This document shows, in pieces, positions 36,513 to 56,321 of a stretch of 64,000 nucleotides of DNA. Source of the stretch: Pseudomonadota bacterium (lineage in GTDB: Bacteria; Pseudomonadota; Gammaproteobacteria; JAKAQQ01); contig DAHVLZ010000009.1 in assembly GCA_027320085.1 (NCBI GenBank), forward strand, positions 64,001-128,000, read 5' to 3'. The translations under genes and the position numbers were made by a program. Numbering within the stretch: position 1 is the first letter of the stretch; every line of letters begins with the position of its first letter. The notes under the pieces are model-generated. The model ran no database searches. It was not told the DNA's origin and was given only the letters and a program-made list of their open reading frames with translations.

Positions 36513-36545
36513 ATGGAACGGTGAATGTTTTCCATTTCAATTATA
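36513..36545 (-). promoter_or_regulatory. -10 box plus operator-like inverted repeat upstream of the SDR-ETF operon
   Basis: TATAAT at 36540-36545 overlapping the rfbD stop; ATGGAA-N11-TTCCAT at 36513-36535. Confidence 0.4.
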
Positions 36546-37452
36546 AGGGAGAGCTCGCCTTCACCGTGATCCGCACGATCTCGCGGAGCGCCTCGCGCCA
36601 GTGGATGGGCTCAAGCCCGGTCCGGGCGATCGTTTCCGATTTGTCGAGGACCGCCTGGAAAGGGCGTCGGGCAGGCAATGGGTATGCCTCGGTGGGAATC
36701 GGGTGGATCGGGACACGGCGCTCGAGAAGACCTGCATTCCGGGCCTCTTCCTCGATCGCACAGGCAAAATCGTACCAGCTCGCGACTCCGGCATCGCTCC
36801 AGTGCAGGATGCCGGAAAGATCGTCACGCAGCGCCACCGACCAGAGAAAGCGGGCCAGCGAGAGGGCCGAGGTGGGCGTACCCACTTGGTCGTCGATCAC
36901 CCGGAGTTCGGGCTGTTCACCCAGGAGACGCAGGATGGTGCGGAAAAAGTTGTTCCCCCAAGGGGCATAGACCCAGCCGGTCCGGACGATCAGGGCCGAC
37001 AAATCTCCGAGTGCCTGGATGGCTTTTTCTCCCTCGGCCTTGCTTTCACCATAGCGGTTGACCGGCCTTGGACAATCTTCAGGTCGCCACGGCCGACCAC
37101 GATCGCCCGGAAACACGAAATCGGTTGAGACATGAACCAACCGGATGCCTTCCGTCCGAGCGAGTCGGGCCAATTCCGCGGTCGCCTCCACATTGACCGC
37201 CCGTGCCTGTTCGAACTCACGCTCGGCACGGTCGACGGCCGTATAGGCGGCCGCATTGAGGATGAGGCCCGGGTTTGAAGTTCTCAGGGCCGATTCGATA
37301 TCCGAACGGCAGGTCAGGTCCAGATCATCCCGGGCGAAACGGATAACCTCGACCCCAGAAGGACGGAGCTCCCAGAGCGCCCGGCCGAGCTGTCCTCCGG
37401 CGCCCAGGAGGAGAACCCGGCCAGTTAAGGGGTCAACCGTGCGATTCTTCAA
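36541..37452 (-). CDS. rfbD: dTDP-4-dehydrorhamnose reductase
   Basis: [37 protein letters not shown]. Probable TTG start at 37452. Confidence 0.93.
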
Positions 37453-38314
37453 GGAGGCGAAGGAGGTATTGGCCGTAGCCGTTCTTGAGAAGTGGCGTGG
37501 CGAGATGCTCAAGCTGCTTGCCATCGATGAATCCCTGCCGGAACGCCACCTCCTCGGGGCAGGCCACCTTGAGTCCCTGACGCGCTTCAAGTGTCTCGAT
37601 GAAGTTCGCGGCCTGCAGCAGAGACTCGGGGGTTCCGGTGTCAAGCCAGGCAATCCCGCGCTCGAGACGCTCGACCGAGAGTTTTCCCTCGGCCAGATAA
37701 CGGTTGTTGAGATCGGTGATCTCGAGTTCGCCCCGTGCGGAGGGGACCAGTCGGGCCGCGTGCTCTGCCACCGACCCGTCGTAAAAGTAGAGACCGGTCA
37801 CGGCATAGTGTGAGCGCGGCCGGGCTGGCTTTTCCTCGATGCCGCGCGCGTGGCCGTTCTGATCGAAATCCACCACCCCGTAACGTTCGGGGTCACTCAC
37901 ATAGTAGGCAAAGACGGTCGCACCCTGGGTTCGTTCCGCGGCTCGACCGAGGGTCTGGGTCAGGCCCTGACCGTAGAAAATGTTGTCCCCAAGGATCAGG
38001 GCGACCGGGCTTCCCTCGACAAAGGAGCGGGCAATCAGGAACGCCTGCGCAAGCCCCCCCGGATGGGGCTGCTCGGCATAGCGGATCTCAAGTCCCCACT
38101 GGGTGCCATCGCCGAGCAATGCCCGATAGCTGGGGAGGTCCCTGGGCGTCGAGATCAGGAGAATCTCCCGGATCCCGGTCAACATGAGCGTGGTCAGCGG
38201 ATAGTAGACGAGCGGCTTGTCGAACACCGGCAGGAGCTGTTTGCTCACGACATGGGTGATCGGATAGAGGCGGGTCCCGGAACCGCCTGCCAGAATGATG
38301 CCCCGGCGGATCAC
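37433..38314 (-). CDS. rfbA: Glucose-1-phosphate thymidylyltransferase
   Basis: [35 protein letters not shown]. Confidence 0.96.
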
Positions 38315-38353
38315 GGGACCTGAGATGCCAGGATCCGAGAGGTGGGGTGCATA

Positions 38354-40312
38354 TCAGTTCTCCCGGTGAGATGGAATCCGGTTCACCACCAAGGGGATCA
38401 CGACCCCACGGCCGGCTTCTTCTTCCCTAGGTTCCGCCCTGTGGAAATCCCCATGGGTCAGGCGGGTGAGCTCCCCGATCAGCTCCGTTCGGGTTGCGGG
38501 CATCAGCCGGGCAGACCAGAGTTCGAGATCCCGCTTGAGGGACGTCCAGTCCGAATGGGTTTCGCCCTGGGCCAAAAACAGCTTGGGATGGTCCGTCATC
38601 AGCCGACGCTCATTTTCATAGAAAAGCTGTTCCGCAAGTTTTTCGCCCGGGCGCAAGCCGATGTAGACAATCTCCATGTCGATCCCCAGGCGGTGGCCGG
38701 ACAGCTCGATCATTTGTTCCGCAAGATCCCGGATCCGAATGGGATTCCCCATGTCCAAGACAAAAATTCCAGCACCCAGGCGCGAGGTCGCAGCTTCGAG
38801 AACCAGGTGGACGGCCTCCGAGATGGTCATGAAGTAGCGCCTGACCTCGGGATGGGTGACAGTTACCGGGCCCCCGGCCTTGATCTGTGCCCGGAAGAGG
38901 GGGACCACCGATCCCATGGAATCGAGGACGTTGCCAAAACGGACGGTCATGAATTCCGTTCTGCCCTGTCCATTTAGGGCCAAAACGATCCGCTCGGCCA
39001 GCCGCTTCGTGGCGCCCATGATGTTCGCAGGCCAGACCGCCTTGTCGGTCGAAACCAGCATAAACCGGTCCACCGAATGGCGGATGGCCATTTCAGCCAT
39101 GTTCTTGGTCCCGAATACATTGTTCCGGATTCCGGCCACCGGATTTTCCTCGACCAAAGTCACATGTTTGTAGGCCGCGGCATGGAAAACCACCTCCGGG
39201 TGAGTCTCGCGGAACACACCATCCATCGCCTCGGCCGAGGTGACATCGGTTAGACGACCCTCGATCCGGGCTCCGGCCAGCGGACTCAGCTCGGCCAAGA
39301 TCCGGTAGAGATTGTATTCCGCATGATCCACGAGGATCAGCCGATCCACGCCAAGACTCAAGAGCTGACGGCAGATCTCGGAGCCTATCGAACCGCCGGC
39401 ACCGGTGACCAGGATCCGTTTCCCACCAAAAAAGTTCTGCAAGGCCGAAGACTGCATGACAACCGGTTCGCGCCCCAGCAAATCCTCGACCGAAACCGGT
39501 CTCAACCGCTCGACGGTAATCCGCTGGTTGATGAGTTCGCTCAGGCGGGGCAGCGTCCAGCAGGTCACCTGAAGAGTCTGACAGATCTGCACGACCTGCT
39601 GCAGGAGTCTCCGGGGTGCGGAGGGCATGGCGTAGATCACGATTTGAGCCCGCACCTCCTGGATGACCCTTGACAGTTCGTTGACCGTGCCGAGAACTGG
39701 CACTCCCTGGAGGGCACGACCCTGCTTGGCCGGATCGTCATCCACGAAAGCGACCGGCACATAGGTCCGGTCATCGCGCAGGTCGCGAAGCAGAAGCTCC
39801 GCCGCGACACCCGCTCCGACCAGAACCGCCCGCTGACCCGTCCTCTGGAAGAAAAGACCCCGTCGCTCCTTCCAGATGCGATACCCCAGACGGCCCGCCC
39901 CCAGGCCGATCAGCAACAGAAGGGGCTGCAGGACCAGAAAGCCCCGTGGCAGCCGTTCCAGGTCGTCGATGAAGGTGATCGCGCCCAGTGTGAGCAGCGC
40001 GCCCAAAGCCACCGCTTCCGTCAGACGGATGAGATCAGGCAATGAGGCAAAACGCCAGATCCCCCGGTAGCACTTGAGGGCGTACAGGCTCAGGCTCTGG
40101 CACAGGAAGGTCACGCCCAGGTAAACCCACCAGCGGGACTCCAGAGACAAGTCCGCGAGATGCCTCCAGTCGACCCGGACGATCAGCGCCAGCGGGACAC
40201 TGATGAGGATCCAGAGCGAATCGTGAAAGAAAACGGAGAGGCGAAGGACGGAACGGTTCCGCCACCAGGCCCGGGGCTCGAAAGGTCGCTCGGACAGAGA
40301 GGGGCGGGTCAC
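38354..40312 (-). CDS. Membrane-bound UDP-GlcNAc 4,6-dehydratase (PglF/WbpM/WlbL family)
   Basis: Four N-terminal TMs, TGAGGSIG, HAAAYKHV, STDKAV..MGATK, RFGNVLDS. GTGA overlap with the upstream gene. Confidence 0.92.
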   Translation of the reverse strand: MTRPSLSERPFEPRAWWRNRSVLRLSVFFHDSLWILISVPLALIVRVDWRHLADLSLESRWWVYLGVTFLCQSLSLYALKCYRGIWRFASLPDLIRLTEAVALGALLTLGAITFIDDLERLPRGFLVLQPLLLLIGLGAGRLGYRIWKERRGLFFQRTGQRAVLVGAGVAAELLLRDLRDDRTYVPVAFVDDDPAKQGRALQGVPVLGTVNELSRVIQEVRAQIVIYAMPSAPRRLLQQVVQICQTLQVTCWTLPRLSELINQRITVERLRPVSVEDLLGREPVVMQSSALQNFFGGKRILVTGAGGSIGSEICRQLLSLGVDRLILVDHAEYNLYRILAELSPLAGARIEGRLTDVTSAEAMDGVFRETHPEVVFHAAAYKHVTLVEENPVAGIRNNVFGTKNMAEMAIRHSVDRFMLVSTDKAVWPANIMGATKRLAERIVLALNGQGRTEFMTVRFGNVLDSMGSVVPLFRAQIKAGGPVTVTHPEVRRYFMTISEAVHLVLEAATSRLGAGIFVLDMGNPIRIRDLAEQMIELSGHRLGIDMEIVYIGLRPGEKLAEQLFYENERRLMTDHPKLFLAQGETHSDWTSLKRDLELWSARLMPATRTELIGELTRLTHGDFHRAEPREEEAGRGVVIPLVVNRIPSHREN

Positions 40313-40911
40313 CCGCAAAGGAGTCGCCTCACGGTCGCGACCACGACGCAACAGTCGCTTATGGGGGTCCTCTGTGCAGCGTAGCGCAAATTCATGCGGA
40401 TTTTCCTTGGCATGAGGTGCTTAATATACGTCTTTTCCGGATCCGCAGAGCGAGCCAGGATCCGGCCTTCATGCCGGAACACGATGCTCGCGGGGTCAGT
40501 CAGCCCGGGCGGAGACTCAAGGACCAACCGTTCTTCGGGTCGGTAATGTGCCACGTAGCAGGCGAGTTCCGGTCTGGGCCCCACCCAACTCATCTCGCCA
40601 CGGATGATATTGAGGAGTTGGGGCCATTCATCCATCCGGCTCCGGCGCAGCCATTTTCCCACCCACGTGATCTGGGGATCGGCCGGAACCGTCAAACCGT
40701 TCCGGAATTGTCCCGCCGGGAGGCGGGTCATGCTGCGGAATTTGAACAGCGGGAAGACACCCCCCCCCTGACCGACCCGCTCCTGGATAAAAAAGACCGG
40801 TGGCCCATCCGTAACCAGGATAGCCAGCGCAACCAACAACCCCGGCGGCAGGAGCAAGAAACCTGCGAGCGCCGCGAGCAGGCGTTCACCTGGGGAGACC
40901 TTGCGCTTCAT
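40309..40911 (-). CDS. Monotopic polyprenol-phosphate sugar-1-phosphate transferase (PglC/WlbG family)
   Basis: FKFRSM, DEWPQLLNI, MSWVGPRPE, PGLT. Confidence 0.9.
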   Translation of the reverse strand: MKRKVSPGERLLAALAGFLLLPPGLLVALAILVTDGPPVFFIQERVGQGGGVFPLFKFRSMTRLPAGQFRNGLTVPADPQITWVGKWLRRSRMDEWPQLLNIIRGEMSWVGPRPELACYVAHYRPEERLVLESPPGLTDPASIVFRHEGRILARSADPEKTYIKHLMPRKIRMNLRYAAQRTPISDCCVVVATVRRLLCG

Positions 40912-42065
40912 ACTCCGTGTTGACGAACGATGTCCAAAACTGCGTCAATGACGTCACTGACATCAGTATCTGACAGCCTGGGGTGCAGTGGCAAGCTCAG
41001 GATCCGGCGATAGGCCCCATCCGCCTGCGGGAAGTCTTCGGGTCGGAAACCGTAGCGGTCCCGATAAAACGGATGGAGATGAAGCGGGATGAAATGGACG
41101 GATGCCCCGATTCGACGCCGTCCCAGCTCTTCCACAAACTGGTCCCGACCGATTGACAGGCAGTCCGGCCGCAGTCGGAGCGGATACAAGTGACGGGCAT
41201 GTCGGATCCCCTCACGCGCTTTCATCGGTTCCAGAGCCGGGCATTCCCCAAAGGCCCGATCGTAGGCCAGAGACACCGCGTCCCGCCGCTTCTGGAAGGA
41301 TTCCAGCTTTTTGAGCTGAACAAGGCCCATGGCTGCCTGGGGATCGGTCAGGTTGTATTTGAAGCCAGCGGCCTCGATTTCATAAAACCACGCCCCTCCC
41401 TGGTGATAGCGCTTCCACGCATCCCGGTTCATGCCGTGGAGGGCCAAGGGTCGAGCCCGTGCAATCCGGGCCTCGTCTCCGGTCAGCATACCGCCTTCAC
41501 CCGTTGTGAGATTTTTCGTGGCATAAAAACTGAACGCAGTAAAGTGTTTCTCCGATCCGATCGGGTGCCCTCGGTATTCTGCGGCCAGCGCATGGGCCGC
41601 ATCGAAGACAAGCGCCAACCCATGCCCCTCGGCGAGATCCTGAAATCGTTCCATCTCGACGGGATGCCCCGCAAAATGCACCGGCAGGATAGCCCGGGTT
41701 CGGGGCGTGATTGCCCGCTCGACAGCCTCGGGGTCGAGATTCAGGGTATCTGCCTCCACATCGGCGAAAACCGGGCGCGCACCCACATGTTCGATGACAT
41801 TGGCTGTCGCCGCAAAAGTAAAGGGCGTCGTCACGACCTCGTCCCCAGGCTTGATGCCCAAAGCCACGAGGGCCAGATGGAGGGCTGCGGTGCAGGAAGA
41901 AACGGCCAGGGCAGCCTCGGCATCCACCGTCTTGGAGAACGTGTCCTCAAACTCCCGGACCCGGGGGCCGAGCGTGAGCCATCCGCTTCGGAGTGCCTCG
42001 GTTGCGGCCTGGATCTCCTCTTCGCCGATCGCGGGTGGGGAAAAGGGCAGGAACGCTTCTCTCAT
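40908..42065 (-). CDS. DegT/DnrJ/EryC1/StrS sugar aminotransferase (WlbF/ArnB-like), currently in-frame fused to the upstream GT4
   Basis: MREAFLPFSPP start, SSCTAALHL, DAAHA, SFYATKNLTTGEGGM (PLP Lys). Confidence 0.9.
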   Translation of the reverse strand: MREAFLPFSPPAIGEEEIQAATEALRSGWLTLGPRVREFEDTFSKTVDAEAALAVSSCTAALHLALVALGIKPGDEVVTTPFTFAATANVIEHVGARPVFADVEADTLNLDPEAVERAITPRTRAILPVHFAGHPVEMERFQDLAEGHGLALVFDAAHALAAEYRGHPIGSEKHFTAFSFYATKNLTTGEGGMLTGDEARIARARPLALHGMNRDAWKRYHQGGAWFYEIEAAGFKYNLTDPQAAMGLVQLKKLESFQKRRDAVSLAYDRAFGECPALEPMKAREGIRHARHLYPLRLRPDCLSIGRDQFVEELGRRRIGASVHFIPLHLHPFYRDRYGFRPEDFPQADGAYRRILSLPLHPRLSDTDVSDVIDAVLDIVRQHGV

Positions 42066-43340
42066 CCGGCATTCTCCAGGGCCAGGGCTCGCCTGAGTAT
42101 CGCACGACCCCCCCCCCCCGACACAGCGCTCGAACCAGACGCGTCCCGCACGACCCATGGTCCGGCAACGTTCCGGCTGAGCCTCGAGTTCCAGGAGGAG
42201 CCGGGCAAGCGTGGCGGCATCTCCTGAGGGGAGCCTGATCCCTCCACTGGATTCACGGAGAACGGTCTCACTATCGCCGGATCCCAGAAAGACGACTGGG
42301 CATCCCAACCCCAGATAATCGAAGAGCTTGCTGGGGAGAGCCGTCTGGAACAGGGGCGCTTCAGGAAACAAAAGAAGTCCCAGATCAGCCTCGCGAATGA
42401 GCGAACGCGCCTCCTGCCGCGTTAGAGGACCGGTAAAGCGGACCGGCAAACGCTCCCTCTCCGCACGCGCCCGGTAACCGGCTGCGCGCTCACCACCACC
42501 CACGAGAAGAAACACAATCCCCGTGTCGTGACCGATCTTCACAGCCGCGTCAAGGAGGGTATCCAGATCACTGGCCCGCCCCATGCTTCCGGCATAGATA
42601 ATCCGGAAACGGGCATCTCCCCAAGGAGATTCCGGAAGGTGACGGTGGGAGGTGTGGGTGGGGCTTGATCCGGGATCCAGGAGGAGTGCCGCGTCGGCGT
42701 TATAGAGAAGGCCCAACTTCTCATCCGGAACACCCTGTGCTTGGAGCGCCCGCTGGATCCCCGGAGTGGCACACAGAATGAACGCGGCCCGGCGTCGCAG
42801 CGCGCGCTGAAAGGCTGAAAGTCCACGACTGAGAAGACCAGGTTTCAAAACACCGAGCGCCAATGCGGTCTCGGGATAGAGGTCCCGCTCATCCAGGACC
42901 AGGCGCGCGCGAAAACGGCCAGCCACAGCCCAGGCCACGGGAGAAACCAGGACCGGGTCGGTTCCAACCAGCACAACGTCCGGTCTCTGCTTCATCCGGA
43001 TCAGCGCAGCCAGGAAACTCAAAGCAGCAAAGCGCGTGTAATGGATCAATCGTCGCCCCAGGCTTTTCCGGTAATCCACAAGCCCCGAGACCCTGAGGAA
43101 CCGGATTCCGTCTTGCTCACTCTCACTGCACCAGCCCCGACCATCTTTCCGCAGATCCTGGCCAGTCATATAGTGGATTGCCGACGTGATGACAGTGACC
43201 GAACATCCGAGGTCACGGAGCTGGCAGGCTTCCGCCCAGGGACGCACGGCCCCGGGTTCTTCCGGACGAGGACAGTGGAAGGTGAGGAAGAGGACGTGGA
43301 GCCTTCGGTCGGAAGCGCCATCCGACAGGCTAGGGGCCAT
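42062..43340 (-). CDS. GT4 glycosyltransferase (WbuB/WlbE-like); reading frame set by a G12 tract
   Basis: DERDLYPE, YAGSMG, PSKLFDYLGLGCPV. As sequenced it reads through into the aminotransferase (810 aa ORF 40908..43340). Confidence 0.85.
42108..42119 (-). repeat. G12 homopolymer tract (candidate phase-variation site)
   Basis: 12 consecutive C on the + strand; the longest homopolymer I found in the window. Confidence 0.85.
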
Positions 43341-44436
43341 GGCCCGTCACGGCCACGTGGACCGCCCGAATCACGAGTCCAATTTCCGCCTCTCCCAGCC
43401 CATGGTGCACAGGAAGCGCAAGGATGGTTTCCGTGAGTCGCTCCGTCACGGGGAGCGAGACCTCACCGAGATGCTCGCGGATCACCGGTTGCTGGTGAAT
43501 TCCCCGCGGGTAGTGCACAGCAGTCGCAACCCCTTGTTTCGCAAGTCGTGCGGCCAGTGCATCCCGGTCGCACCCCATCACCCGCTCGTCCACAACCACC
43601 GAGTACTGATGCCAGGAGGACTCCGAGCCTTTAGGTTCGACCGGCAACTGCAGGCCGGGCACTCCATGAAGTCCGGCGGTCAGCTGGGAGGCATTCTGCC
43701 GTCGGCGCGCCAGCATCCCCTCCAGTCGCCCCAGCTGGGCATGCCCGATGGCCGCCTCCACGTCCGTCATTCGGTAGTTCCAACCGATCATCGTATGGAT
43801 GTACTTGGCTGTCTGACCATGCGTACGGAGATAACGCATCTTCCGGTCCAGCTCCGGATCCGGACTGGTCACCATCCCCCCTTCCCCGACGAAGAGGTTT
43901 TTCGTCGGATAGAAGGAGTAGCAGACACAGGCGCCGAGAGAGCCGATGTCCCGGCCACTGAACCGGGTCCCCATGGACTGGGCAGCATCCCAGATGATCC
44001 GCAAATTGTGTTCGGCCGCAAAGGACTCGATCGCATCGACCGGACAGGACGCACCAAACAGGTGGACCGGGACGATGCCCCGTGTTTTCGAGGTAAGACG
44101 CCGGGCCGCATCTTCCAGGTCAATCAGGTAGGTCCGGGGATCGACGTCACAAAGCACCGGGACCAGCCCCGTCTGCAGGGCCATGCTCGCTGTCGCAAAA
44201 AAGCTGAACGAGGGCATGAGGATCTCGTCTCCGGGCTCGAAGACGGCTGCATAGGCGAGGTGCAAGGCGGCGGACCCGTTGGCACAGGTCACTGCATGGC
44301 GGGCGCCGACCCGTTCGGCGAAAGTCCGCTCGAAACGGTCACATTCCACCCCCTGCCGGAGTTGTCCGGAGCGGAGTACTTGTAGGGCCGCCTCGATTTC
44401 GGGCTCAGCCAGGGTGGTGTCGGCCATGGGAATCAT
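43330..44436 (-). CDS. DegT family aminotransferase (WbpE/WlbC-like C3 aminotransferase)
   Basis: NGSAALHL, DAAQS, SFYPTKNL, GWNYRM; adjacent to a Gfo/Idh/MocA dehydrogenase and a hexapeptide acetyltransferase. Confidence 0.88.
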   Translation of the reverse strand: MIPMADTTLAEPEIEAALQVLRSGQLRQGVECDRFERTFAERVGARHAVTCANGSAALHLAYAAVFEPGDEILMPSFSFFATASMALQTGLVPVLCDVDPRTYLIDLEDAARRLTSKTRGIVPVHLFGASCPVDAIESFAAEHNLRIIWDAAQSMGTRFSGRDIGSLGACVCYSFYPTKNLFVGEGGMVTSPDPELDRKMRYLRTHGQTAKYIHTMIGWNYRMTDVEAAIGHAQLGRLEGMLARRRQNASQLTAGLHGVPGLQLPVEPKGSESSWHQYSVVVDERVMGCDRDALAARLAKQGVATAVHYPRGIHQQPVIREHLGEVSLPVTERLTETILALPVHHGLGEAEIGLVIRAVHVAVTGHGP

Positions 44437-46135: not shown

Positions 46136-46161
46136 GGGGATGCCACGAAACAAGCCCGCGC

Positions 46162-46236: not shown

Positions 46237-46267
46237 GCCATCGAGCCGAACCAATCTTGGATCCCAC

Positions 46268-47292: not shown

Positions 47293-48435
47293 TCAACTCT
47301 CGCCAATCACGGAAAGCGCACAATCGACGATTCGCTCCGCTGCATGCCCATCCCCAAACGGCTCTTTCCAGTCCACCTGGGCACTGAGAGCCTGGGAGGC
47401 CCCAGCCACGATACGGTCCGGATCGGTGCCGACCAGCCGGTTGGCCCCTATTTCGATCGTCTCCACCCACTCGGTATTTTCACGGAGGGTTACACAGGGA
47501 ATCCGATGGATACACGCTTCCTGCTGCACCCCGCCGGAGTCAGTCAGAACCAAGCCCGCGCGGGAAAGCAGGGCAAGAAACTCGAGGTACCCGCTTCCGG
47601 GGCGGATGTCGACCCGATCCAGGGAATGCACCCACTCCTCGAGGCCGAATTCCCGCAAGCGTTTAAGCGTTCTTGGGTGCGCGAGACAGAGCACCGTGAG
47701 GTCGAGCGCCTCGGCAACATGTGCGACCCCGGTGAAAATCCCGCGCAGGCGAACCGGATCATCCACGTTCTCTTCACGGTGAGTCGTGAGGATTGCATAA
47801 GAGTGCCCGTCATCCCGGGCCCGCCGATCTGGTTGACCGAACCGTCTGAGGGCCAGCGCCAGATGGGCCCGAGAGGCATCCACGATCGGATTCCCCGTCT
47901 CGATGATCTTGCCCCGCACGGACTCTCGCTCGAGCTGACGTCCCGCCTTGGACGAGGAGGTAAACAAGTACTCGGAGATGTGATCGATGATCCGGCGATT
48001 GTGCTCCTCCGGCATGCACCAGTCGTAGGAGCGTTCACCCGCCTCCACATGTCCCACCCGGATGCCCAGTTTGCGGGCCGCCAAGGCGCCGGCGAGGTTC
48101 GTGTTGGCATCCCCTCCAACCAGCACCAAACGAGGTTTCCGTTCGAGCAAGACCTGCTCGACCCCTTCCAGCATGGCTGCGGTCTGACCCCCATGCGTCG
48201 GTTTTTCGGACACTCCTTCCAGCCGGTAATCGGGTACAGGCAACTCCAGATCCGAGAAGAACTGGGCATCCATGTTCGGCGAGTAATGTTGCCCCGTATG
48301 GATGACGAAATGGGCTCCAGCTTTTTTCCTCAGATGGGTGATGATAGGCGCAAACATCACGATGCCCGGCCGGGTTCCCACCACCACTCCGACCTCGGGC
48401 CGAAGCACTTCTGGACGCAATACTTTTTCACTCAT
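47293..48435 (-). CDS. Non-hydrolysing UDP-sugar 2-epimerase (WecB/WbpI/WlbD family)
   Basis: VGTRP, HTGQHY, HVEAGERS, PEEHNR, HREENVD, TDSGGVQQEA. Confidence 0.92.
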   Translation of the reverse strand: MSEKVLRPEVLRPEVGVVVGTRPGIVMFAPIITHLRKKAGAHFVIHTGQHYSPNMDAQFFSDLELPVPDYRLEGVSEKPTHGGQTAAMLEGVEQVLLERKPRLVLVGGDANTNLAGALAARKLGIRVGHVEAGERSYDWCMPEEHNRRIIDHISEYLFTSSSKAGRQLERESVRGKIIETGNPIVDASRAHLALALRRFGQPDRRARDDGHSYAILTTHREENVDDPVRLRGIFTGVAHVAEALDLTVLCLAHPRTLKRLREFGLEEWVHSLDRVDIRPGSGYLEFLALLSRAGLVLTDSGGVQQEACIHRIPCVTLRENTEWVETIEIGANRLVGTDPDRIVAGASQALSAQVDWKEPFGDGHAAERIVDCALSVIGES

Positions 48436-49636
48436 GTTTCACCTCGTGGGCTTCGGATCCATCTTTCAGACATTGCTGCAACCACGGCCGGATTTCACTG
48501 GCGGCCCGTTCCCAGTTGTAGATCTCCTCGAAAGCCTGGCGGGCATGACGCCGGAAGCGGCTCAAACGGTCTGGCTCGGCGAGCAGTTCGCCGAGAACCT
48601 GGGCCACAGCCTCGGGGCTTGCCGTATCGACCAAAACACCGCAATCGGTCTCCACCACCGCACGACCGATCTCGCCGAAACGCGGCGCGAGGATGGCCAT
48701 CCCGGTCTGCATATAGGTGAAAATCTTGCGGCCATTTAAGGCACCCACCTTTTTGTACAGAGGTGACTCCGGCTGATGCAGAGCCAGACCGATCTCCGCA
48801 CCCGCGATTCGAGCAAGCATTTCCCGGTAAGACAATGGAGGCGAGATCTCGACCTGATCCGTCAATCCCAGCCCGTTCATGCGCTCCGTGAGTGCGGGGG
48901 TCCAGCCGGGCCCGACCAGAAGCAGGGTGAGGTTCGGAAAATGCGGTTTGAGCAAGACCAGTGCCTGAAGCGCAACGCCGATCCCTTTGCGTTCGAGAAG
49001 TCCACCGACGTAACAGATCACCCGGCGCCCGGTCTTCCCCTCTGGCCCAATCCTGGATTTCCAGGGACCGTCATCGGCCAGGGCGGGGAGGTTCGGCACC
49101 ACCCGGACGGAGTCGTTGAAACGCCGAAGCTGGGTCTCGAACCAGCCGCCACGAGAGTCCACGGCAAAAATCCCTCGCATCGGTCGGAGTGCCAGACCTT
49201 CGAGCCATCGCAGCAAAGGCCAGGTCACGGATCCCAAGGGACCGAAGTAACGCGACACATCCCAGGCGTAATATTCCGCACTATCGTAAAACCAGCTCGC
49301 GCGCGTGAAGCGCCAGACCAGGGGCAGTTGGAAAAGATGGGTGGCCACCAGGATGGGCGGCCGGGATGCGGATCGGGTCTCTTCCCGGATGATCCGTGAG
49401 AGGGCCCGCCAGTAGCGGGGCATGGCCAAAAGCAGACGCGCACTCTCAGTCGGTGCGCGGAGATGGACAGTTGCGAGGACTGCCTTTTGATCCGGCATAC
49501 CCAGGCTGCCCGGCAAGCGATCCCAGACCACAAAACCGGGGGCTTCCCCGATATTCTCAAACAGGCGGAAAGTATTCCATTGCCGTGGCGTGGGCGTGAC
49601 GTTGAAACAGAGGATGATCACCCGTCTCTTGTTCAA
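48428..49636 (-). CDS. GT4 family glycosyltransferase
   Basis: YDSAEYY, YVGGLLERKG, KIFTYMQTG, YNWE; TTGA overlap with the upstream gene. Confidence 0.85.
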   Translation of the reverse strand: MNKRRVIILCFNVTPTPRQWNTFRLFENIGEAPGFVVWDRLPGSLGMPDQKAVLATVHLRAPTESARLLLAMPRYWRALSRIIREETRSASRPPILVATHLFQLPLVWRFTRASWFYDSAEYYAWDVSRYFGPLGSVTWPLLRWLEGLALRPMRGIFAVDSRGGWFETQLRRFNDSVRVVPNLPALADDGPWKSRIGPEGKTGRRVICYVGGLLERKGIGVALQALVLLKPHFPNLTLLLVGPGWTPALTERMNGLGLTDQVEISPPLSYREMLARIAGAEIGLALHQPESPLYKKVGALNGRKIFTYMQTGMAILAPRFGEIGRAVVETDCGVLVDTASPEAVAQVLGELLAEPDRLSRFRRHARQAFEEIYNWERAASEIRPWLQQCLKDGSEAHEVKHE

Positions 49637-50838
49637 GATCGTCTCATGGTTCCCATGCCGTTCCGCGTGCGGCATTCCGCGACAGCCTCGGCGTAAACCG
49701 ACGAGATCTGGTCTGTCACCGTCGTCCATCCAAACCGGGATTGGGCCTCCCGTGAAATCGCCTCCCGATCCCAACTCCGCCCGACGATCTCCCGCATGGC
49801 GGAACCCAGTTCAGAAACCGCACCCGCCGGTACGAGAAGACCATTTTGGCCCGGTTGGATCAGTGAGATCAATGCGGGAATCGCGCTTCCGATGACCGGC
49901 GTTCCACAACACAGGCTTTCCAGGACCGTGACCGGATTCCCCTCCCCGTAGGAGGGAAGAATGAAGCAATCGGCAGCTGCGAGGTATTGCGATACGCTCT
50001 CGTGGGACTGCCATCCCCGCAGGATGAGCCGACCTTCCGAGTGACGGGCCCGCCGCTCGAGATCGGCCCAGAGGGATCCGGTTCCCGCGAGGAGCAATCG
50101 CGCTTTTTCCGGGGCCGAGGAAAAAAAGGCACGGACAATATCCGCGACGCCCTTGGCAGGCTCCAGATTGCCAAGGAAAAGGAACAGAGGCCCTTCCTGC
50201 GGCAAGTCCAGCGCATGACGGGTGGCTTCTCGCGCCATCGGCCTGAAAAGACGAGTCTCCACACCATTTGGAATGATCCGCATCCGTCCGGGATCAGCTC
50301 CAAGTCCTTCCAGGGGGGCACGAAAATAGTCGGCGACTACGATGATCCGGGTGGCGCGTTCCACAACCGTGCGTGCCGTGGAGCGGTAGGCGGCCTGGCC
50401 AAGGTCCCGGTACACGTCACCGGCATGAGCGGTCACAACGGTGGGGATGGGTGCATCGCCAACCGCGCGGATCGCGGCCAGACCGGGTGGGCTCAGCCAA
50501 TGGGCATGAATGAGATCGTAGGGGATCCCACCGGAAAACAACTCCCGTCGGGCGAGCGCGGCAAGCTCGCGGCTGCGGACCCGACGATTCCGCGGAACAT
50601 AAAGGTAGGCAGGACGTTTCACGGTCGCGGGCAGAACGCCGGTGAAGGTGGTTTGGGCCTCCAGATTCCGCGCACGCGATTCCAGCCAGCGGGAGGGAAT
50701 GCACGGCAACCAGGGGCGCGGGAACAGCACCGTAATCTCATGACGACCGGCAAGAGCCGTGACCTGGGCCCGGATGAAAATCCCCCGTCCCGGGTGTTCC
50801 GCCGTCGGGAAGGTTTCGGTCAGGACCAGGACACGCAT
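49633..50838 (-). CDS. GT4 family glycosyltransferase (WlbH/TuaC-like)
   Basis: MRVLVLTETFP, IHAHW..PG, TAHAGDV, PNGV, EGNPVTVLE (EX7E). Confidence 0.88.
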   Translation of the reverse strand: MRVLVLTETFPTAEHPGRGIFIRAQVTALAGRHEITVLFPRPWLPCIPSRWLESRARNLEAQTTFTGVLPATVKRPAYLYVPRNRRVRSRELAALARRELFSGGIPYDLIHAHWLSPPGLAAIRAVGDAPIPTVVTAHAGDVYRDLGQAAYRSTARTVVERATRIIVVADYFRAPLEGLGADPGRMRIIPNGVETRLFRPMAREATRHALDLPQEGPLFLFLGNLEPAKGVADIVRAFFSSAPEKARLLLAGTGSLWADLERRARHSEGRLILRGWQSHESVSQYLAAADCFILPSYGEGNPVTVLESLCCGTPVIGSAIPALISLIQPGQNGLLVPAGAVSELGSAMREIVGRSWDREAISREAQSRFGWTTVTDQISSVYAEAVAECRTRNGMGTMRRS

Positions 50839-50845
50839 GGACCGG

Positions 50846-52171
50846 TCAGTCGCTGGGAGCGGGAGCGCGCGGAACCACAAGCGTCCGCCATGCGGATGCC
50901 ACCAACAAAGCCAGTAGAAACCAGAGGAAACGATCACGCTGCGTGCCGAGTGCAAGGGATTGCACGGCACTGGCGAGGGCCGCCACCCAAAGGCCCGTGT
51001 GATGGAAGTAGGACTCACGATTTGGGGATATACGCAGGCGGGAGTGGGCACGCCAACCTAGCCAGAATATGATCCCCCCAGCCACGACGAGTGCCAGGAG
51101 GGAGGGGATCCCGCTTTCATCCTGAACTGCGATCCACAGGTTGTGGGGGCCCTGTTTGGGCTTGGAGATCGGAAAGGGAAGATAAGGAGGCATATCGGCA
51201 CTGACATTAGCCGGACCCACCCCCCAAAGGGGATGGGATGCGGCCATCGCGATCCCGCCGAGTGCAAGGTTCAAGCGCTCGGATCCGACCGCCCCGATGG
51301 AATGCTCCGACCGGACGATCTGGGTGTTGATCCGTTCGAGATAGACGCCCCCGGCAGCCAGCACGATGATCGAGAAAAGTCCCAGGGTGAGCGCCAGGAG
51401 AGTTCCGCTCCGTCTTCCGGCCTGCGGAAACAGAAACCAGGCAACCAGGGCCAGAACCACGAGAAGCCCGATCAGCCCCCCGAGTGAAACGGTCCGGCCA
51501 ATTCCCCAGACAAGCACCAACGAGACGAGCAGTGCGAGGACCTTGCGGGCGGCCTTCCGTTCGGTGGCAACCCAGGCCAAGGCCAGGGCGAGACCGATGT
51601 TGAACGCGAAAGCGGTGAGGTTGGGGTCGCCGATTCCCGCACCCGCCCGAAGAATGAAGCCATGTGTGAGATCTTCCACCCAGAGCACATGGCCCAGAAA
51701 CTCAAGGCTTCCACTCACCATCATGAAAGCAAGGACGGCCAAGGCAGCAGGCAGCAGCTTCGCCAGGTTTCTTCCAAGACCCGGATCATCCACACAGATC
51801 TGGACCAGAACGAAAAACAGGATGAGACGGGCGAGGTAGGCGCCACAGAGGGCCAGGGAGATGGGTCGACCAGGCGAGACCCAGGATGAAACCAGGACCA
51901 GCCCGAAAAATACGGACAGGGACAACCAGAGAAGGCTCAGGTTTCCACCGACGGCCGGCATGCGTCCGTTCCGGCCCAGAACCCAGGCCAAGCTCATCCC
52001 CAAGGTCAAAAGCGGAACGAGAAGCGGGTGCCCTGCCACCGCCAGGGGTTTAAGGAGCTTCGCGGGCACACAAAGCGCCACAGTCAAGGCATAGACAACA
52101 AGCCGGACCCACAGGGGTCCTCGATGAAAGGGTTGATCGGGTCGGACCCGGGGGGCCTCACCAGCGGACAC
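50846..52171 (-). CDS. O-antigen polymerase/ligase family membrane protein (Wzy_C), probable Wzy
   Basis: About 11 TMs; GDPN, R-x..HPLWGVG, PHNLWI..ESG motifs; embedded among glycosyltransferases. Confidence 0.75.
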   Translation of the reverse strand: MSAGEAPRVRPDQPFHRGPLWVRLVVYALTVALCVPAKLLKPLAVAGHPLLVPLLTLGMSLAWVLGRNGRMPAVGGNLSLLWLSLSVFFGLVLVSSWVSPGRPISLALCGAYLARLILFFVLVQICVDDPGLGRNLAKLLPAALAVLAFMMVSGSLEFLGHVLWVEDLTHGFILRAGAGIGDPNLTAFAFNIGLALALAWVATERKAARKVLALLVSLVLVWGIGRTVSLGGLIGLLVVLALVAWFLFPQAGRRSGTLLALTLGLFSIIVLAAGGVYLERINTQIVRSEHSIGAVGSERLNLALGGIAMAASHPLWGVGPANVSADMPPYLPFPISKPKQGPHNLWIAVQDESGIPSLLALVVAGGIIFWLGWRAHSRLRISPNRESYFHHTGLWVAALASAVQSLALGTQRDRFLWFLLALLVASAWRTLVVPRAPAPSD

Positions 52172-53303
52172 GGGGATAGATCCGCTCGCTGTCAATCCGG
52201 TTTTTATGGGGCAGAATCCGTTCCAGCATGCTGCAGAGGACCTCCTCGGTGATGGGATGCAGCCTGAGTCCCAGTTCAAGCAGACCGCTGTGCGCTGGCT
52301 GGTAGAAATGCTCTTCCGCTTCCTTGCGGGGATTTTCAAGGTGCTGGATTTCGACCCGGAGTCCCAACGACTTTCCGGCCCGCTGAACCCAGGCGGCCAG
52401 GTCATTGACCGTGAAGCATTCCGTAAACTGGTTGAGGATACGGAGCTGACCCTTCCCGGGTGGGTGGGTTGCAGCCAGCTCGACGCATTGGAGTGTGTCC
52501 AGGAGGTTGAGATAACCCCGGGTCTGTCCGCCCCGTCCATAGACGGTCAGGGGAATGCCGGCGACCGCCTGAACCAGAAATCGGTTGACAAGCGTTCCGA
52601 ACAGGTCGTCGTAATGAAAATTCGGAAGCAAGCGCTCATCCCGATCCGCCTCAGGCGTCGACAGACCGTAGACCGGTCCCTGCATGAGGTCCGTCGCCTG
52701 GAGATTCCACATCCGCACGTAGAACCAGATCAAGTCTGTATCCATGATTTTCGTGGTGTGATAGAGACTTCCGGCCTGCCGCGGGTAGAGAAAACGATCA
52801 CGACGCCCCTTGTGCTCGATTTCGATCCAGCCCTCTTCGATCTCGATGGCTGGAGTCCCGTATTCACCCATGGTCCCGAGCTTGATCAGGTGGCACGACG
52901 GGGCAGCTTCCCGTAGGGCCCAGATCACATTCAGTGTTGTGGCGAGATTGTTGCGTAACGTGAGTGACGCCTCGGCATACCCCCGCATGGAATAGGGCGC
53001 CGAAGGCTGCTCTGCATAATGGATGACCACCTCGGGCCGGGTCTCCCGAAAAACCGATTCGAGGAACGGATAATCCGCACAGTCGCCAATCCGCACCGCG
53101 ACTTCGCACCCGGTCACTTGCCGGAAGATTCCCACCCTCTGCTCAAGGTCCGGCGCATCGATCAGGGGTTCAGACCGCGTCTGCAGGGCCAGGGTGCGCC
53201 GCAGGTAGTTATCGACCACCGTCACTCCATGCCCCCGGGCTGCAAAATGCATGGCGGTCGGCCAGCCGAGATAGCCATCCCCTCCGAGAATCAGGATGCG
53301 CAT
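52158..53303 (-). CDS. sqdB: UDP-sulfoquinovose synthase (SqdB/SQD1/Agl3 family)
   Basis: GGDGYLGWPTAM, EQPSAPYSM, HLIKLGTMGEYGTP, YHTTK, TDLMQGPVYG, PLTVYGRGGQTRG, NPRKEAEEH. Confidence 0.85.
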   Translation of the reverse strand: MRILILGGDGYLGWPTAMHFAARGHGVTVVDNYLRRTLALQTRSEPLIDAPDLEQRVGIFRQVTGCEVAVRIGDCADYPFLESVFRETRPEVVIHYAEQPSAPYSMRGYAEASLTLRNNLATTLNVIWALREAAPSCHLIKLGTMGEYGTPAIEIEEGWIEIEHKGRRDRFLYPRQAGSLYHTTKIMDTDLIWFYVRMWNLQATDLMQGPVYGLSTPEADRDERLLPNFHYDDLFGTLVNRFLVQAVAGIPLTVYGRGGQTRGYLNLLDTLQCVELAATHPPGKGQLRILNQFTECFTVNDLAAWVQRAGKSLGLRVEIQHLENPRKEAEEHFYQPAHSGLLELGLRLHPITEEVLCSMLERILPHKNRIDSERIYPRVRW

Positions 53304-54427
53304 GGCTTCCCTTCCGGAGCACCCTCACGGGACAGGACAGGAATCAGCCCGATCTCCTCCAAGAGTCGGCGCAGGGCTTCGGGATCAAGCCGAGGCTCAT
53401 CTCGGGAGACATAGGGGTGATCCACACGGTGACGGATGACTTGGGGATAGTCGTAGACGATTCCCTGGTAAAGCGGGCGGAATGCCGGAAGCACCACAAA
53501 AAAGTCCCGAAGTTCACACGTTCGCATCGTTTCCGATTCGGTCATGAGTTCCTCCATGAGTTTCTCGCCGGGTCGTGGACCTGTTTGGAGCACCTCGATG
53601 GACTCGGGACGGTACCCCTGACCGGGCGCCAGTGCCTCGATCATGACCCGTGCCAAATCCTCAATCGCCACCACGGGCATTTTTGTGATGAAAACCTCGC
53701 CGCCCCGCGCCAGGGGTACGGAGCACAGCACCAGCCGGACCGCCTCATCGATGCTCATGACGAAACGGGTCATCTCGCGGCTGGTCAGTGTGAGGGGGCC
53801 ACCATGGGCAATCTGGCTGGCAAAAATTTCCGTGACCGAACCCCGGGAACCCAGGACATTGCCAAACCGGGTGGAAGCAAAGACCGCGCCCCCGCCATTG
53901 GCATTGGCGGCGGTAATGAGGCGCTCACCCATGAGCTTCGAGGTCCCCATGACGTTGGTCGGATTGACCGCCTTGTCCGAACTCGTGAAGAGCACACGGG
54001 AAACCCCCACCTCGGAGGCGGCCTGGATCACGGACTCGACCCCCAGGATATTCGTCCGCATCGCTTCAAAAGGCGCCTTCTCACACTGATAGACGTGCTT
54101 GTAGGCCGCACAGTGCAAAACCGTGTCAGCGCCGGCAAAAAGACGCCTCAGGGAAGATTGGTCCCGGACGTCGCCCAGTAGGAAACGGGCCCGCGGTTCG
54201 TCCATCCAGCGGGCCTCCATCCTGAAAATCCCATCCTCATTGTTGTCGATACCCAAAATCGTGCCACGAAAGGCTTGTGCCGGATCCAAAAGACGCCGGA
54301 CCAGCTGTCGTCCGAGCGTCCCACAACAGCCGGTGACCACAACCTTACGGGCTTGCTGCCAGTACGCAGCAATGACATCCGGACCGGTTGAGCCTGAGGT
54401 TTTCTGTTCTCCCCCTCCCCGTTTCAC
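53291..54427 (-). CDS. Soluble UDP-GlcNAc 4,6-dehydratase family protein (CapD/PseB/FnlA-like)
   Basis: TGCCGTLG, HCAAYKHV, SSDKAVNP..MGTSK, RFGNVLGSRGSV, RPGEKL. Confidence 0.88.
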   Translation of the reverse strand: MKRGGGEQKTSGSTGPDVIAAYWQQARKVVVTGCCGTLGRQLVRRLLDPAQAFRGTILGIDNNEDGIFRMEARWMDEPRARFLLGDVRDQSSLRRLFAGADTVLHCAAYKHVYQCEKAPFEAMRTNILGVESVIQAASEVGVSRVLFTSSDKAVNPTNVMGTSKLMGERLITAANANGGGAVFASTRFGNVLGSRGSVTEIFASQIAHGGPLTLTSREMTRFVMSIDEAVRLVLCSVPLARGGEVFITKMPVVAIEDLARVMIEALAPGQGYRPESIEVLQTGPRPGEKLMEELMTESETMRTCELRDFFVVLPAFRPLYQGIVYDYPQVIRHRVDHPYVSRDEPRLDPEALRRLLEEIGLIPVLSREGAPEGKPCAS

Positions 54428-54563
54428 AAAATGACTCCAATCCGAATCGATTGCGGGTCATTATGCCCCAAGTCAGCATCGCTTTTGCTGTCCCGCTAGA
54501 ATCGTCTCTGCGACCCCGAACGGAATTTTCCCCAATGATCCGGATCGTCTTCCTGCCCCCAAG

Positions 54564-56321
54564 ATGACTGGGGCAAACAATGGCCCTTCTCCGGACAGGA
54601 TCACCCCGCTCCACTTGATCGGGGTCGGCCTGCTCGGGATTACTCTCGCGGCCGGACCCATCGTCCCCGATCTCCTGAGCGCGAGCCTTTTCCTGGCGGG
54701 GCTGATCGGCTTGGCGGACGGTCTCTGGAACGGTTTTTGGACCCGCTTGGATCGCGACGAAAAAAGGATCGCCGCTGCAACCTTCCTGCTGGGGTTCGCC
54801 ACCGTCACCTGTTTTGCACTGGGCCGGGAAACCCATATCGGTTTCCAGATCCTGGGCCGCGAGCTTCGGATTCTGCTCTTCCTGCCCGTCTATCTCGTCG
54901 TGAGGCGTCTGGCTTTGTCCCAAAAGCAACTGGGAGTCATCCTGGGACTTGCCGCAGGCATCGCGTTCGCCTACAGCCTCTGGAGCCTCGAGGTGCATGC
55001 GCCGGGATACCGAGTGCGCGGGGTGACCGGGGTCGCGATTGTCTTCGGCGACTTGGCCCTTCTGGCGGGCGTTTCCGGGGCCTGGTTGCTTCTCCCCAAG
55101 GACCGCCATCTGCCCTTCCGGACCAAGCTCCTATGGGGTGGACTAGCATTCGCAAGCCTGATCTCGGGCACCCTCGCGGCCTTTGCCTCTGGCACCCGGG
55201 GGGCCTGGATTGCCATTCTTCCCTTTCTCTTCGTGGGTACCCGCGCGTACGTCCGCTGTGCCGGGGTCCGGCACAAGGGACGCTGGTATTCCGGGGTTGC
55301 TCTCGTCGCCGCCGGTCTGACGGCACTCTGCGTGATCCCACCTTCGCCCATCCAGACGCGCGTGATTCGGGCTGTGAGACAGACCTGGATCTCGGTTCGT
55401 GACGAAACGCTTCCCCTCCTGGAGCACAGTCCCACCCGACTCGGCTGTCTCAACCGGAACGCCGAACTGATACGACTCCGGCACTATACGGTGACGGCAC
55501 CGCCCCTGGACCAGGGAGATCTGAAGCTGGTCCGACTACCCGCCACCCAAGTGCCCGCCGGATGCACCGGCCATATGGCCTTTCGTGCCCATGTCCTCTA
55601 TTCGACCGACTGGCTTAGTATCTGGGTCAATACCTCATCCCGGCGTCCCGGCTTCCATGAAGTCCAAGTCTGGGCGCGGGGCCAGGGCTTGTTTCAGATC
55701 GACCGGAAAGGCCCGGTTGAAAAGATTCATGGCAGACAGTTTCGACTTTATTCGGCCATCGGAGATGCAGGCCGTTTCGCCCCGCTCACCTTCCATCTTC
55801 ATCCCGGATGGACACTGACCTTCATTCCCGTCACCACCTATCCCTGGGAGTTCAGCTACGATCCGGGGGGAAACTCGATCGGCAACCGGCTCGCACTCTG
55901 GAGAACCGCGTTTTTGACCTTCATGCGACACCCCTGGTTAGGCGCGGGAACAGGATCCTTCGAATCCGATGCAAGCCAGCGGATCCGGGATGGGCAGGTT
56001 CCCCCTGTGGTCTGGGGTTACCAGCATGCGCACAATGACTTTTTCAACCTGCTCGCCACCGAAGGTCTTTTGGGACTCGTCGCCCTCCTCTGGTTTTACT
56101 ACGCGTTGATGCGAATCGGCGGTGGACCAGAATATCGCGGCCCGCGGGAACTTCGCGTTTTCATGGTGCTCTTCGTCCTGGGATTTTCCATATTTGGTTT
56201 CACGGAAACCCTCTGGATCCACACCTTCGTCGTGAATTGGATTGTCTTCGTCTCAGCCGCCGCCTTGGCCGTCTCCCGAGGCGAGCAGCCGGTGGAGATT
56301 CACGACAAGCTGGTAAAATAA
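54564..56321 (+). CDS. O-antigen ligase family protein (WaaL/O-OTase-like) with a large periplasmic insertion
   Basis: TM bundle, SGTRGAW, SIGNRLALW, HPWLGAG, HAHNDFFNLLATEGLLG. Confidence 0.82.
   Translation: MTGANNGPSPDRITPLHLIGVGLLGITLAAGPIVPDLLSASLFLAGLIGLADGLWNGFWTRLDRDEKRIAAATFLLGFATVTCFALGRETHIGFQILGRELRILLFLPVYLVVRRLALSQKQLGVILGLAAGIAFAYSLWSLEVHAPGYRVRGVTGVAIVFGDLALLAGVSGAWLLLPKDRHLPFRTKLLWGGLAFASLISGTLAAFASGTRGAWIAILPFLFVGTRAYVRCAGVRHKGRWYSGVALVAAGLTALCVIPPSPIQTRVIRAVRQTWISVRDETLPLLEHSPTRLGCLNRNAELIRLRHYTVTAPPLDQGDLKLVRLPATQVPAGCTGHMAFRAHVLYSTDWLSIWVNTSSRRPGFHEVQVWARGQGLFQIDRKGPVEKIHGRQFRLYSAIGDAGRFAPLTFHLHPGWTLTFIPVTTYPWEFSYDPGGNSIGNRLALWRTAFLTFMRHPWLGAGTGSFESDASQRIRDGQVPPVVWGYQHAHNDFFNLLATEGLLGLVALLWFYYALMRIGGGPEYRGPRELRVFMVLFVLGFSIFGFTETLWIHTFVVNWIVFVSAAALAVSRGEQPVEIHDKLVK

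Follow-up and report, generated by a model that had tools for sequence, protein, structure and literature searches.

A conserved pair of SqdB-like and CapD-like genes in a Wzy-type glycan locus: a candidate cassette for a C6-sulfonated nucleotide sugar

What does an enzyme of the uridine diphosphate (UDP)-sulfoquinovose synthase family do in the middle of a bacterial surface glycan locus? Sugars with a carbon-sulfur bond have been described in lipids of photosynthetic membranes and in a small number of archaeal N-glycans, and the question is raised here by an sqdB-like gene (52158..53303) of a 64,000-nt stretch of DNA, hereafter the window, from the gammaproteobacterial contig DAHVLZ010000009.1 (assembly GCA_027320085.1). 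At positions 36541-54427 of the window the large open reading frames (ORFs) all read from the minus strand, separated by short gaps or overlapping slightly, and make up a one-strand Wzy-type glycan operon in a 2.14-Mb genome (96% complete). Housekeeping genes flank the locus, those for ETF and ETF-QO at one end and those for SCO1, DapF, XerC and HslU at the other. Family searches of the ORFs bore out the description of the locus genes given in an earlier note on this DNA, including the placement of the SqdB-family gene inside the operon and its translational coupling to it through overlaps with both neighbours. As judged from the sequences, we consider it rather likely that the region at 36.5-56.3 kb is a Wzy-dependent, O-antigen-like glycan locus, the first two coupled genes of which form a conserved cassette making a C6-sulfonated nucleotide sugar. 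The product of this cassette is probably other than UDP-sulfoquinovose, possibly a 6-sulfo-N-acetylhexosamine (6-sulfo-HexNAc).

The SqdB-family protein (52158..53303, minus strand, 381 aa) is a member of the extended short-chain dehydrogenases/reductases (SDRs). The NCBIfam model of UDP-sulfoquinovose synthase, NF041015, matched it end to end (1-381 of 384 positions, 435 bits), and Arabidopsis SQD1 (PDB 1qrr) was aligned to it without gaps over residues 2-381 (401 bits, E 5e-119). As counted on the latter alignment, its T144, Y181, H182 and K185 correspond to T145, Y182, H183 and K186 of SQD1, the TMGEYG motif is present, and the nicotinamide adenine dinucleotide-binding motif GGDGYLG at residues 7-13 has the GxxGxxG form of the extended-SDR fold. 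The fingerprint [ST]MG...Yx3K, listed for UDP-sulfoquinovose synthases in Table 1 of PMC8987622, is present as well. With the four catalytic residues (Thr, Tyr, His, Lys) also in place, the catalytic motifs are intact, as had been claimed. In family, length and these motifs the enzyme resembles SQD1, SqdB and Agl3, and it shares with Agl3 the feature that it would feed a glycan rather than a lipid; its identity to SqdB of Sinorhizobium meliloti is only 36-38%. This is the sole SqdB-family gene of the genome, a second, weak match being RmlB. The start of sqdB overlaps the upstream CapD-like ORF by 13 nt. At its other end the longest form of the Wzy_C ORF, extending to 52540, overlaps sqdB by 383 nt; because homologues (L016, L004 and L017 in the alignment) begin at TTG 52195 or GTG 52171, the real overlap is approximately 14-38 nt.

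The upstream gene (53291..54427, minus strand) encodes a short dehydratase of the CapD/Polysacc_synt_2 family (378 aa; PF02719, 281 bits), which scored 239 bits with PseB and 200 bits with FnlA, both below the equivalog cut-offs. It contains the Asp-Lys acid/base pair ([ST]DK) and the [YM]x3K motif of Polysacc_synt_2 dehydratases. Throughout the 30 SqdB partners aligned (mean column identity 57%) the signature SSDK...MGT[ST]K is invariant, with MGTSK in the window. Met stands here in place of the usual Tyr of YxxxK, which is also the case in PglF and CapE (PMC8987622) and in FnlA. The best solved relative of the short dehydratase is 6bwc (225 bits), described in the same source as Pen, the UDP-N-acetylglucosamine (UDP-GlcNAc) 5,6-dehydratase of Bacillus thuringiensis; a second SDR, Pal, acts on the exo-glycal that Pen forms (PMC8987622).

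The conservation of this gene pair was followed in 79 loci, that is, the closest SqdB relatives on contigs from one genome per species, searched with the window proteins. These loci span Pseudomonadota, Desulfobacterota, Bacteroidota, Planctomycetota, Acidobacteriota, Chloroflexota, Actinomycetota and other phyla. An orthologue of the short dehydratase (at least 40% identity and at least 200 bits) was found within 450 nt of sqdB in 51 of the 79 loci (42 upstream on the same strand, 6 divergent, 3 downstream) and elsewhere in the same locus in a further 10, while in 9 the flanks were too short to tell whether a partner is present. No other window gene came near this frequency. The CapD-like dehydratase, noted earlier as an upstream gene, is indeed there, yet it is no bystander but the conserved partner of this SqdB branch. 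The distances among SqdB sequences and among their partners were correlated (Mantel r 0.55; none of 2000 permutations gave a value as high), and a complex prediction for the two proteins returned a score of 0.00, which bears neither way. Polysaccharide contexts recur around sqdB: the genes include Wzx, Wzy, GT2 and GT4 glycosyltransferases, DegT, UDP-sugar dehydrogenases, asparagine synthase-like proteins and, in one subgroup, NeuB, NeuC and NeuA; WbgU/WbpP-like epimerases adjoin the SqdB gene in 11 loci. In the subgroup just mentioned, five loci (L068, L070, L074, L075 and L077) have sqdB without the CapD partner, beside NeuB, NeuC-like and cytidine monophosphate (CMP)-transferase genes of nonulosonic acid type. 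Separately, a GT2 gene resembling polyprenyl-phosphate sugar synthases (PpgS/AglJ/ArnC; family f8) directly follows sqdB at L012:11161-12207 and in six other loci and is absent from the window; this arrangement may point to a sulfo-sugar donor that is carried on a lipid and used for transfer in the periplasm.

Since the 79 loci had been picked by their likeness to the window, an even sampling of the phylum, comprising 400 further genomes, was analyzed as well. SqdB matches at E <= 1e-40 were obtained in 35 of 401 genomes (the window's own counted), and their identities fell into two groups, 53-67% and 36-42%. Among the 36 matches outside the window genome, 29 with 1.5-kb flanks were examined; 13 of them carry the motif AEQP (Pro-type, as in the window) and 16 the motif (A/G)EQR (Arg-type). 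The short dehydratase was encoded in the flanks of 10 of the 13 Pro-type loci versus 0 of the 16 Arg-type loci (Fisher p 1.4e-5, a value that overstates the significance because the relatives are not independent). SqdD of the S. meliloti type was encoded in the flanks of 4 of the 16 Arg-type loci versus 0 of the 13 Pro-type ones; the Arg-type loci without SqdD have BcsB-like proteins, nucleotidyl transferases or GT2/GT4 genes as neighbours, and in L111 and L112 the Arg-type sqdB is followed by a gene for a BcsB-like protein.

The SqdD distribution bears on an explanation in which the operon position of sqdB is incidental and its product feeds a membrane sulfolipid, sulfoquinovosyl diacylglycerol or similar, via an unrecognised glycosyltransferase. 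To our knowledge, all genetically proven bacterial SqdB proteins act in sulfolipid synthesis, and beyond the cluster the host genome has five GT4 genes, including glgA; those on contigs C18 and C21 are of unassigned role. On the other hand, tblastn with SqdD and SqdC of the canonical S. meliloti sqdB-sqdD locus found neither in the genome at E <= 1e-5 and at least 40% query coverage, which extends to the whole genome what the earlier note had said about the lack of recognisable sqdC and sqdD. Additionally, sqdB overlaps both of its operon neighbours, and the order sqdB-wzy-two GT4 genes is kept in four relatives with 75-95% SqdB identity (L003, L004, L016 and L017). Considering these facts, we regard a sulfolipid role as very improbable.

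The residue that separates the two types lies at the site of an Arg on which the activity of Agl3 depends. The window SqdB and its relatives in 79 of 79 loci have AEQPSAPYS, with Pro100, while Arg occupies this site in S. meliloti SqdB (AEQRAAPYS), in SQD1 (GEQRSAPYS), in the SQD1-like protein P0138 of Mesostigma and in the homologues of Marinovum, Agrobacterium and Pseudonocardia. On alignment the site coincides with Lys84 of Escherichia coli GalE, and the GalE/WbpP-like epimerases encoded beside some cassettes have Thr or Ser there. The position of GalE Lys84 and WbpP Gly102 presumably forms one wall of the sugar pocket, occupied by Gly in the UDP-GlcNAc-specific WbpP. Other residues that are fixed in the window clade and rare in Arg-type proteins are T183, which adjoins the catalytic His, T189, D190, M207 and P210. 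In Agl3 the primer used for mutagenesis spells AEQ-R-SAP, and the R101A mutant is inactive (PMC4388408, Table 1). The Arg101 of UDP-sulfoquinovose synthases is therefore replaced by Pro100 in the window enzyme and, as it departs at this essential Arg from every characterised UDP-sulfoquinovose synthase, the sugar formed need not be sulfoquinovose. The computed residue masses are approximately 226 Da for sulfoquinovose and approximately 267 Da for 6-sulfo-HexNAc.

A FastTree tree of 170 sequences, in which Mesostigma P0138 and S. meliloti SqdB served as stand-ins for Arabidopsis SQD1 and Agl3, placed the window SqdB in a clade with 73 of the 79 loci and three representatives (local support 99; the deep branches are weakly supported). 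The six other loci, with NeuB contexts, and one representative grouped next to the SQD1/algal Arg-type group, and S. meliloti-type sequences formed a third group. The tree, one of the checks suggested beforehand, thus puts the window protein in a Pro-type branch of its own, apart from the SQD1-like and S. meliloti-type groups.

The same replacement admits an explanation without any sulfonation, by which the Pro-type enzyme no longer adds sulfite and acts as a 5,6-dehydratase, 4-reductase or epimerase on the CapD product, giving a 6-deoxy-HexNAc in the manner of CapE/CapF/CapG or Pen/Pal. The order of genes for dehydratase, SDR and 2-epimerase resembles that of CapE/F/G. Loss of the Arg needed by Agl3 would fit such a change, and Agl3 itself is a 5,6-dehydratase when sulfite is missing (PMC8987622). 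Against it stands the conservation of the SqdB-type active site, since all 30 partnered SqdB sequences share H95, T144, M145, Y148, Y181, H182 and K185 and at least 90% of them have E147, and also the association of the cassette with sulfite metabolism. The host genome encodes an APS/PAPS (adenosine 5'-phosphosulfate/3'-phosphoadenosine 5'-phosphosulfate) reductase (259 bits, cut-off 154), so that sulfite is available. Stand-alone PAPS reductase genes are present in 3 of the 79 loci, including L004, a relative with 81% identity, and TauE-family genes in 3 further, closely related loci. Moreover, the partner is found fused to the sulfite-making enzyme: 13 of the best 120 database matches to the fusion query are single proteins consisting of PAPS_reduct and the short dehydratase, 48-100% identical, and all 13 retain ECG[LI]H, the CC...CxxC cysteines and the signature SSDKAVNPT.VMGT.K. 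Such a recurrent and diverged fusion places the partner inside a sulfo-sugar pathway; together, the fusions, the neighbouring PAPS reductase genes and TauE tie the cassette to sulfite and make an enzyme that has given up sulfite addition appear quite improbable. A CysH gene beside CapD was also considered in L021 and L051 and was rejected, the neighbour there being a different SDR without the CapD motif.

In the genome G094 both types of SqdB are encoded in a single operon, in the order 599-aa PAPS_reduct-dehydratase fusion, Pro-type SqdB (67% identical to that of the window), GalE-like SDR, Arg-type SqdB (63% identical to that of S. meliloti), surrounded by genes for export proteins, Wzz, a glycosyltransferase and a sulfotransferase. 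Their joint presence implies that the two types are not redundant, and they arguably make different products. The same operon (L126, G094:C5:108000-124000) also contains genes for a B12-binding radical SAM enzyme and a Sulfotransfer_2 protein and may encode a glycan both sulfonated and sulfated. The coexistence of the two types argues against an ordinary UDP-sulfoquinovose synthase acting on UDP-glucose in the window, with the CapD-like enzyme making an unrelated 6-deoxy-HexNAc and plain sulfoquinovose entering the glycan. That explanation agrees with the gapless SQD1 match and the retained catalytic residues and TMGEYG motif, with the informative loci that have no partner gene (see below), and with the Pro-type subgroup in NeuB contexts, which departs from the SQD1-type motifs only at the Arg/Pro site. 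The pairing is, however, far tighter than with any other neighbour, both among the close relatives and in the even sample; it is the partner, and no other gene, that is fused to the reductase; and the clade-specific P100, T183, M207 and P210 adjoin active-site motifs. Anyway, we hold plain sulfoquinovose to be a rather unlikely product.

Taken together, the pair of sqdB and the short dehydratase gene looks like a dedicated sulfo-sugar cassette, undescribed in the literature searched; the search, from the coverage of which subscription journals were largely missing, returned neither a sulfoquinovose-type sugar in any bacterial glycan nor a report on such a cassette. The sulfonated surface glycan proposed in the earlier note stands as the best reading of the locus in view of the enzyme family, the pairing and the sulfite link. 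As for the chemistry, the CapD-like enzyme would dehydrate UDP-GlcNAc to a 5,6-ene or an enone, and the SqdB-like enzyme would then add sulfite, supplied by the APS/PAPS reductase of the cell, at C6 and restore the 4-hydroxyl, giving UDP-6-sulfo-6-deoxy-HexNAc, which one of the glycosyltransferases of the cluster would build into the repeat unit. This order follows the precedent of Pen/Pal and is one of at least two, the reverse (SqdB first, followed by C4/C5 chemistry of CapD) being possible. We prefer the former because the neighbours of Pro-type SqdB are enzymes of UDP-HexNAc metabolism (CapD, WbgU/WbpP-like epimerases and 2-epimerases), because 3 of the 16 Arg-type loci (L116, L119 and L121) have beside sqdB a nucleotidyl-transferase gene that may serve the synthesis of UDP-glucose, and because the Arg-to-Pro switch falls on a site of the sugar pocket. 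The window resembles the Bacillus system in combining a Polysacc_synt_2 enzyme with an adjoining gene for a second SDR and differs from it in having Met, where Pen has Tyr, in YxxxK, in the second enzyme being SQD1-like and not Pal-like, and in the absence of pseudaminic acid genes from the window. In its widest form, our tentative proposal is that the short dehydratase and Pro-type SqdB constitute a widespread pathway to an undescribed sugar, predicted to be UDP-6-deoxy-6-sulfo-HexNAc (N-acetyl-sulfoquinovosamine or an epimer), with the Arg-to-Pro switch opening the pocket for the N-acetyl group; we regard it as quite possible without favouring it outright.

Several observations speak against a sulfo-sugar cassette and should be set beside those above. 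The NF041015 score of the window SqdB is below the equivalog cut-off of 575 bits. In 9 of the 70 informative loci, each of the 9 with 1.3 kb or more of flank on either side, the short dehydratase is absent, although 2 of the 5 partner-less genomes searched hold an orthologue on another contig; therefore, Pro-type SqdB may work alone. Since the Arg essential in Agl3 is missing, the Pro-type enzyme may not add sulfite, or may not do so alone. Among 93 full-length representatives taken from the best 150 clusters of the family search, Pro is common at the switch site (69, versus Arg in 20 and other residues in 4), and 7-9 changes of this Pro/Arg state were counted along the tree; hence the switch is no clean marker of one function. 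The fusion with the reductase can stem from mere operon adjacency, and a sulfolipid synthase may have gone unrecognised among the GT4 genes elsewhere in the genome. No Wzx flippase is encoded in the cluster, a 30%-identical candidate being found on another contig only. Finally, the functions of Pro-type SqdB and of the CapD subfamily are both predictions from sequence.

The SqdB family itself, with roughly 466 members at E <= 1e-30, shows some further variation of architecture. The long ORFs of 745 aa in L067 and 715 aa in L042, considered as CapD-SqdB fusions, were rejected as frame artefacts or a NeuB gene. The family members P0125, P0136 and P0143 (725-782 aa) are interrupted by intein-like insertions that contain homing-endonuclease-like sequence; three separate conserved sites are affected, one inside YHxxK, one before TMGEYG and one before VNRF. 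In addition, about a dozen further long two-stretch matches were listed in the family search. Five others (P0178, P0227, P0231, P0240 and P0252; 800-874 aa) have a C-terminal extension of approximately 420 residues, which may be a fused transferase.

The remaining genes of the operon, all on the minus strand unless stated otherwise, are those of a surface-glycan locus. Following sqdB are a Wzy-like polymerase gene (50846..52195; Wzy_C, PF04932, 44 bits; approximately 11 hydrophobic segments), two GT4 genes (49633..51051, TuaC-like below the cut-off, its start being probably later than the ORF start; and 48428..49774, assigned by family matches) and a gene for a non-hydrolysing UDP-GlcNAc 2-epimerase of the WecB/WbpI type (47293..48435; TIGR00236, 323.5 bits, cut-off 210), in agreement with the order given beforehand. 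The plus-strand ORF at 46232..47131 (299 aa) matches Pfam Wzz below the cut-off (E 0.001, 19.8 bits) and shows a single hydrophobic segment at either terminus, which makes it a probable chain-length regulator; a 223-aa minus-strand ORF over the same positions gave no family match. Next come a left-handed beta-helix sugar N-acetyltransferase of the QdtC/WlbB class (45458..46153; Pfam Hexapep), a GFO/IDH/MocA oxidoreductase that is a candidate sugar 3-dehydrogenase in the role of WbpB, to which its similarity is weak (44433..45461), a WbpE-like DegT-family sugar aminotransferase assigned by family matches (43330..44436), and a single 810-aa ORF (40908..43340) joining a GT4 (residues 38-405) to a DegT aminotransferase (residues 437-801), which are separate genes in L019. 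They are followed by a small initiating phosphoglycosyl transferase of the Bac_transf family (40309..40911, 200 aa, family matches), a long membrane-anchored UDP-GlcNAc 4,6-dehydratase of the CapD/WbpM/PglF type (38354..40351, 665 aa; PF02719, 355 bits, with CoA_binding_3 and three hydrophobic segments), the glucose-1-phosphate thymidylyltransferase RmlA (37433..38314; TIGR01207, 483 bits, cut-off 361) and the dTDP (deoxythymidine diphosphate)-4-dehydrorhamnose reductase RmlD (36541..37653; TIGR01214, 284 bits, cut-off 224), the real start of which is near 37.42 kb because the family match begins at residue 79. Divergent from the operon, on the plus strand, lies a gene for a second Wzy_C protein (54564..56321, 585 aa; PF04932, 49.5 bits; approximately 11 hydrophobic segments; 31.6 bits with WaaL 7tpg), a candidate O-antigen ligase or O-oligosaccharyltransferase. 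The parts of a Wzy locus found thus comprise the Bac_transf enzyme, two Wzy_C proteins and the weak Wzz match with its fitting topology.

Bordetella wlb and Pseudomonas wbpA/B/D/E/I determine the pathway to 2,3-diacetamido mannuronic acid, and the earlier note had drawn a parallel between them and the present locus. At the level of enzyme families the parallel holds, as an oxidoreductase, an aminotransferase, a left-handed beta-helix acetyltransferase, a 2-epimerase, a small Bac_transf enzyme and a WbpM-like dehydratase are all encoded here, and the DegT aminotransferase scored 201 bits with WbpE. Close orthology was not confirmed: the oxidoreductase gave no WbpB or WlbA match at E <= 1e-20 (best match 6nor, 84 bits), and the acetyltransferase is nearer to QdtC (107 bits) than to WlbB (66 bits) among PDB sequences. 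The five families of the WbpA/B/E/D/I (WlbA-D) pathway are all in the genome, one of them outside the cluster, namely a TviB/WbpA-like UDP-GlcNAc 6-dehydrogenase on contig C29 (497 bits, below the cut-off of 592). The window locus differs further in its additional sulfo-sugar cassette, rhamnose genes, Wzy and Wzz-like gene. Apparently, the oxidoreductase, DegT enzyme, acetyltransferase and 2-epimerase fit a 2,3-diacetamido sugar, the uronic acid form of which the 6-dehydrogenase on C29 would allow; with this gene at hand, the notion that a sulfonate replaces the carboxylate of the diacetamido-uronate, entertained for lack of WbpA in the cluster, was dropped as unnecessary. The long CapD and the DegT domain fit a 4-amino-4,6-dideoxy-HexNAc. 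The rhamnose pathway is split, with rmlA and rmlD at the end of the glycan operon and RmlB and RmlC encoded on contig C45 (L002), and together these enzymes would provide L-rhamnose as a further sugar. A repeat unit of four sugars would agree with the single initiating transferase and the three GT4 domains. Acetyltransferases are represented in the cluster by one hexapeptide enzyme only, just as had been noted; from the lack of a second one a free 4-amine, and with it a zwitterionic glycan, has been conjectured.

A glycan pathway that would use a nucleotide sulfo-sugar and bring a sulfonated sugar to the cell surface in acidic surroundings has a counterpart in the N-glycan of Sulfolobus acidocaldarius, which carries sulfoquinovose via the Agl3 pathway (PMC4388408). 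That system is archaeal and dolichol-linked, its enzyme is of the Arg type and no CapD partner has been described for it, whereas the window has a bacterial Wzy-type locus. The window DNA was found in four runs labelled mine drainage metagenome, all of one study, two of which may be its source; this label fits the idea of a role at low pH. For positions 51500-55000 no RNA data set was listed. The cassette is also carried by cultured bacteria, namely Microbulbifer agarilyticus DP4N21-6 (L055), Parahaliea aestuarii S2-26 (L061), Cocleimonas flava DSM 24830 (L078), Tamilnaduibacter salinus DSM 28688 (L080) and Desulfoferrobacter suflitae DRH4 (L007). If the proposed function is true, the O-antigen of the mine-drainage bacterium would gain a negative charge that persists even at very low pH, where carboxylates are protonated, and many non-photosynthetic bacteria of several phyla would bear a sulfonated surface sugar. 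The cassette would then offer a new pair of enzymes with which sulfonated sugar nucleotides could be made, and its product a new monomer for bacterial glycobiology and a new source of organosulfonates for the sulfur cycle.

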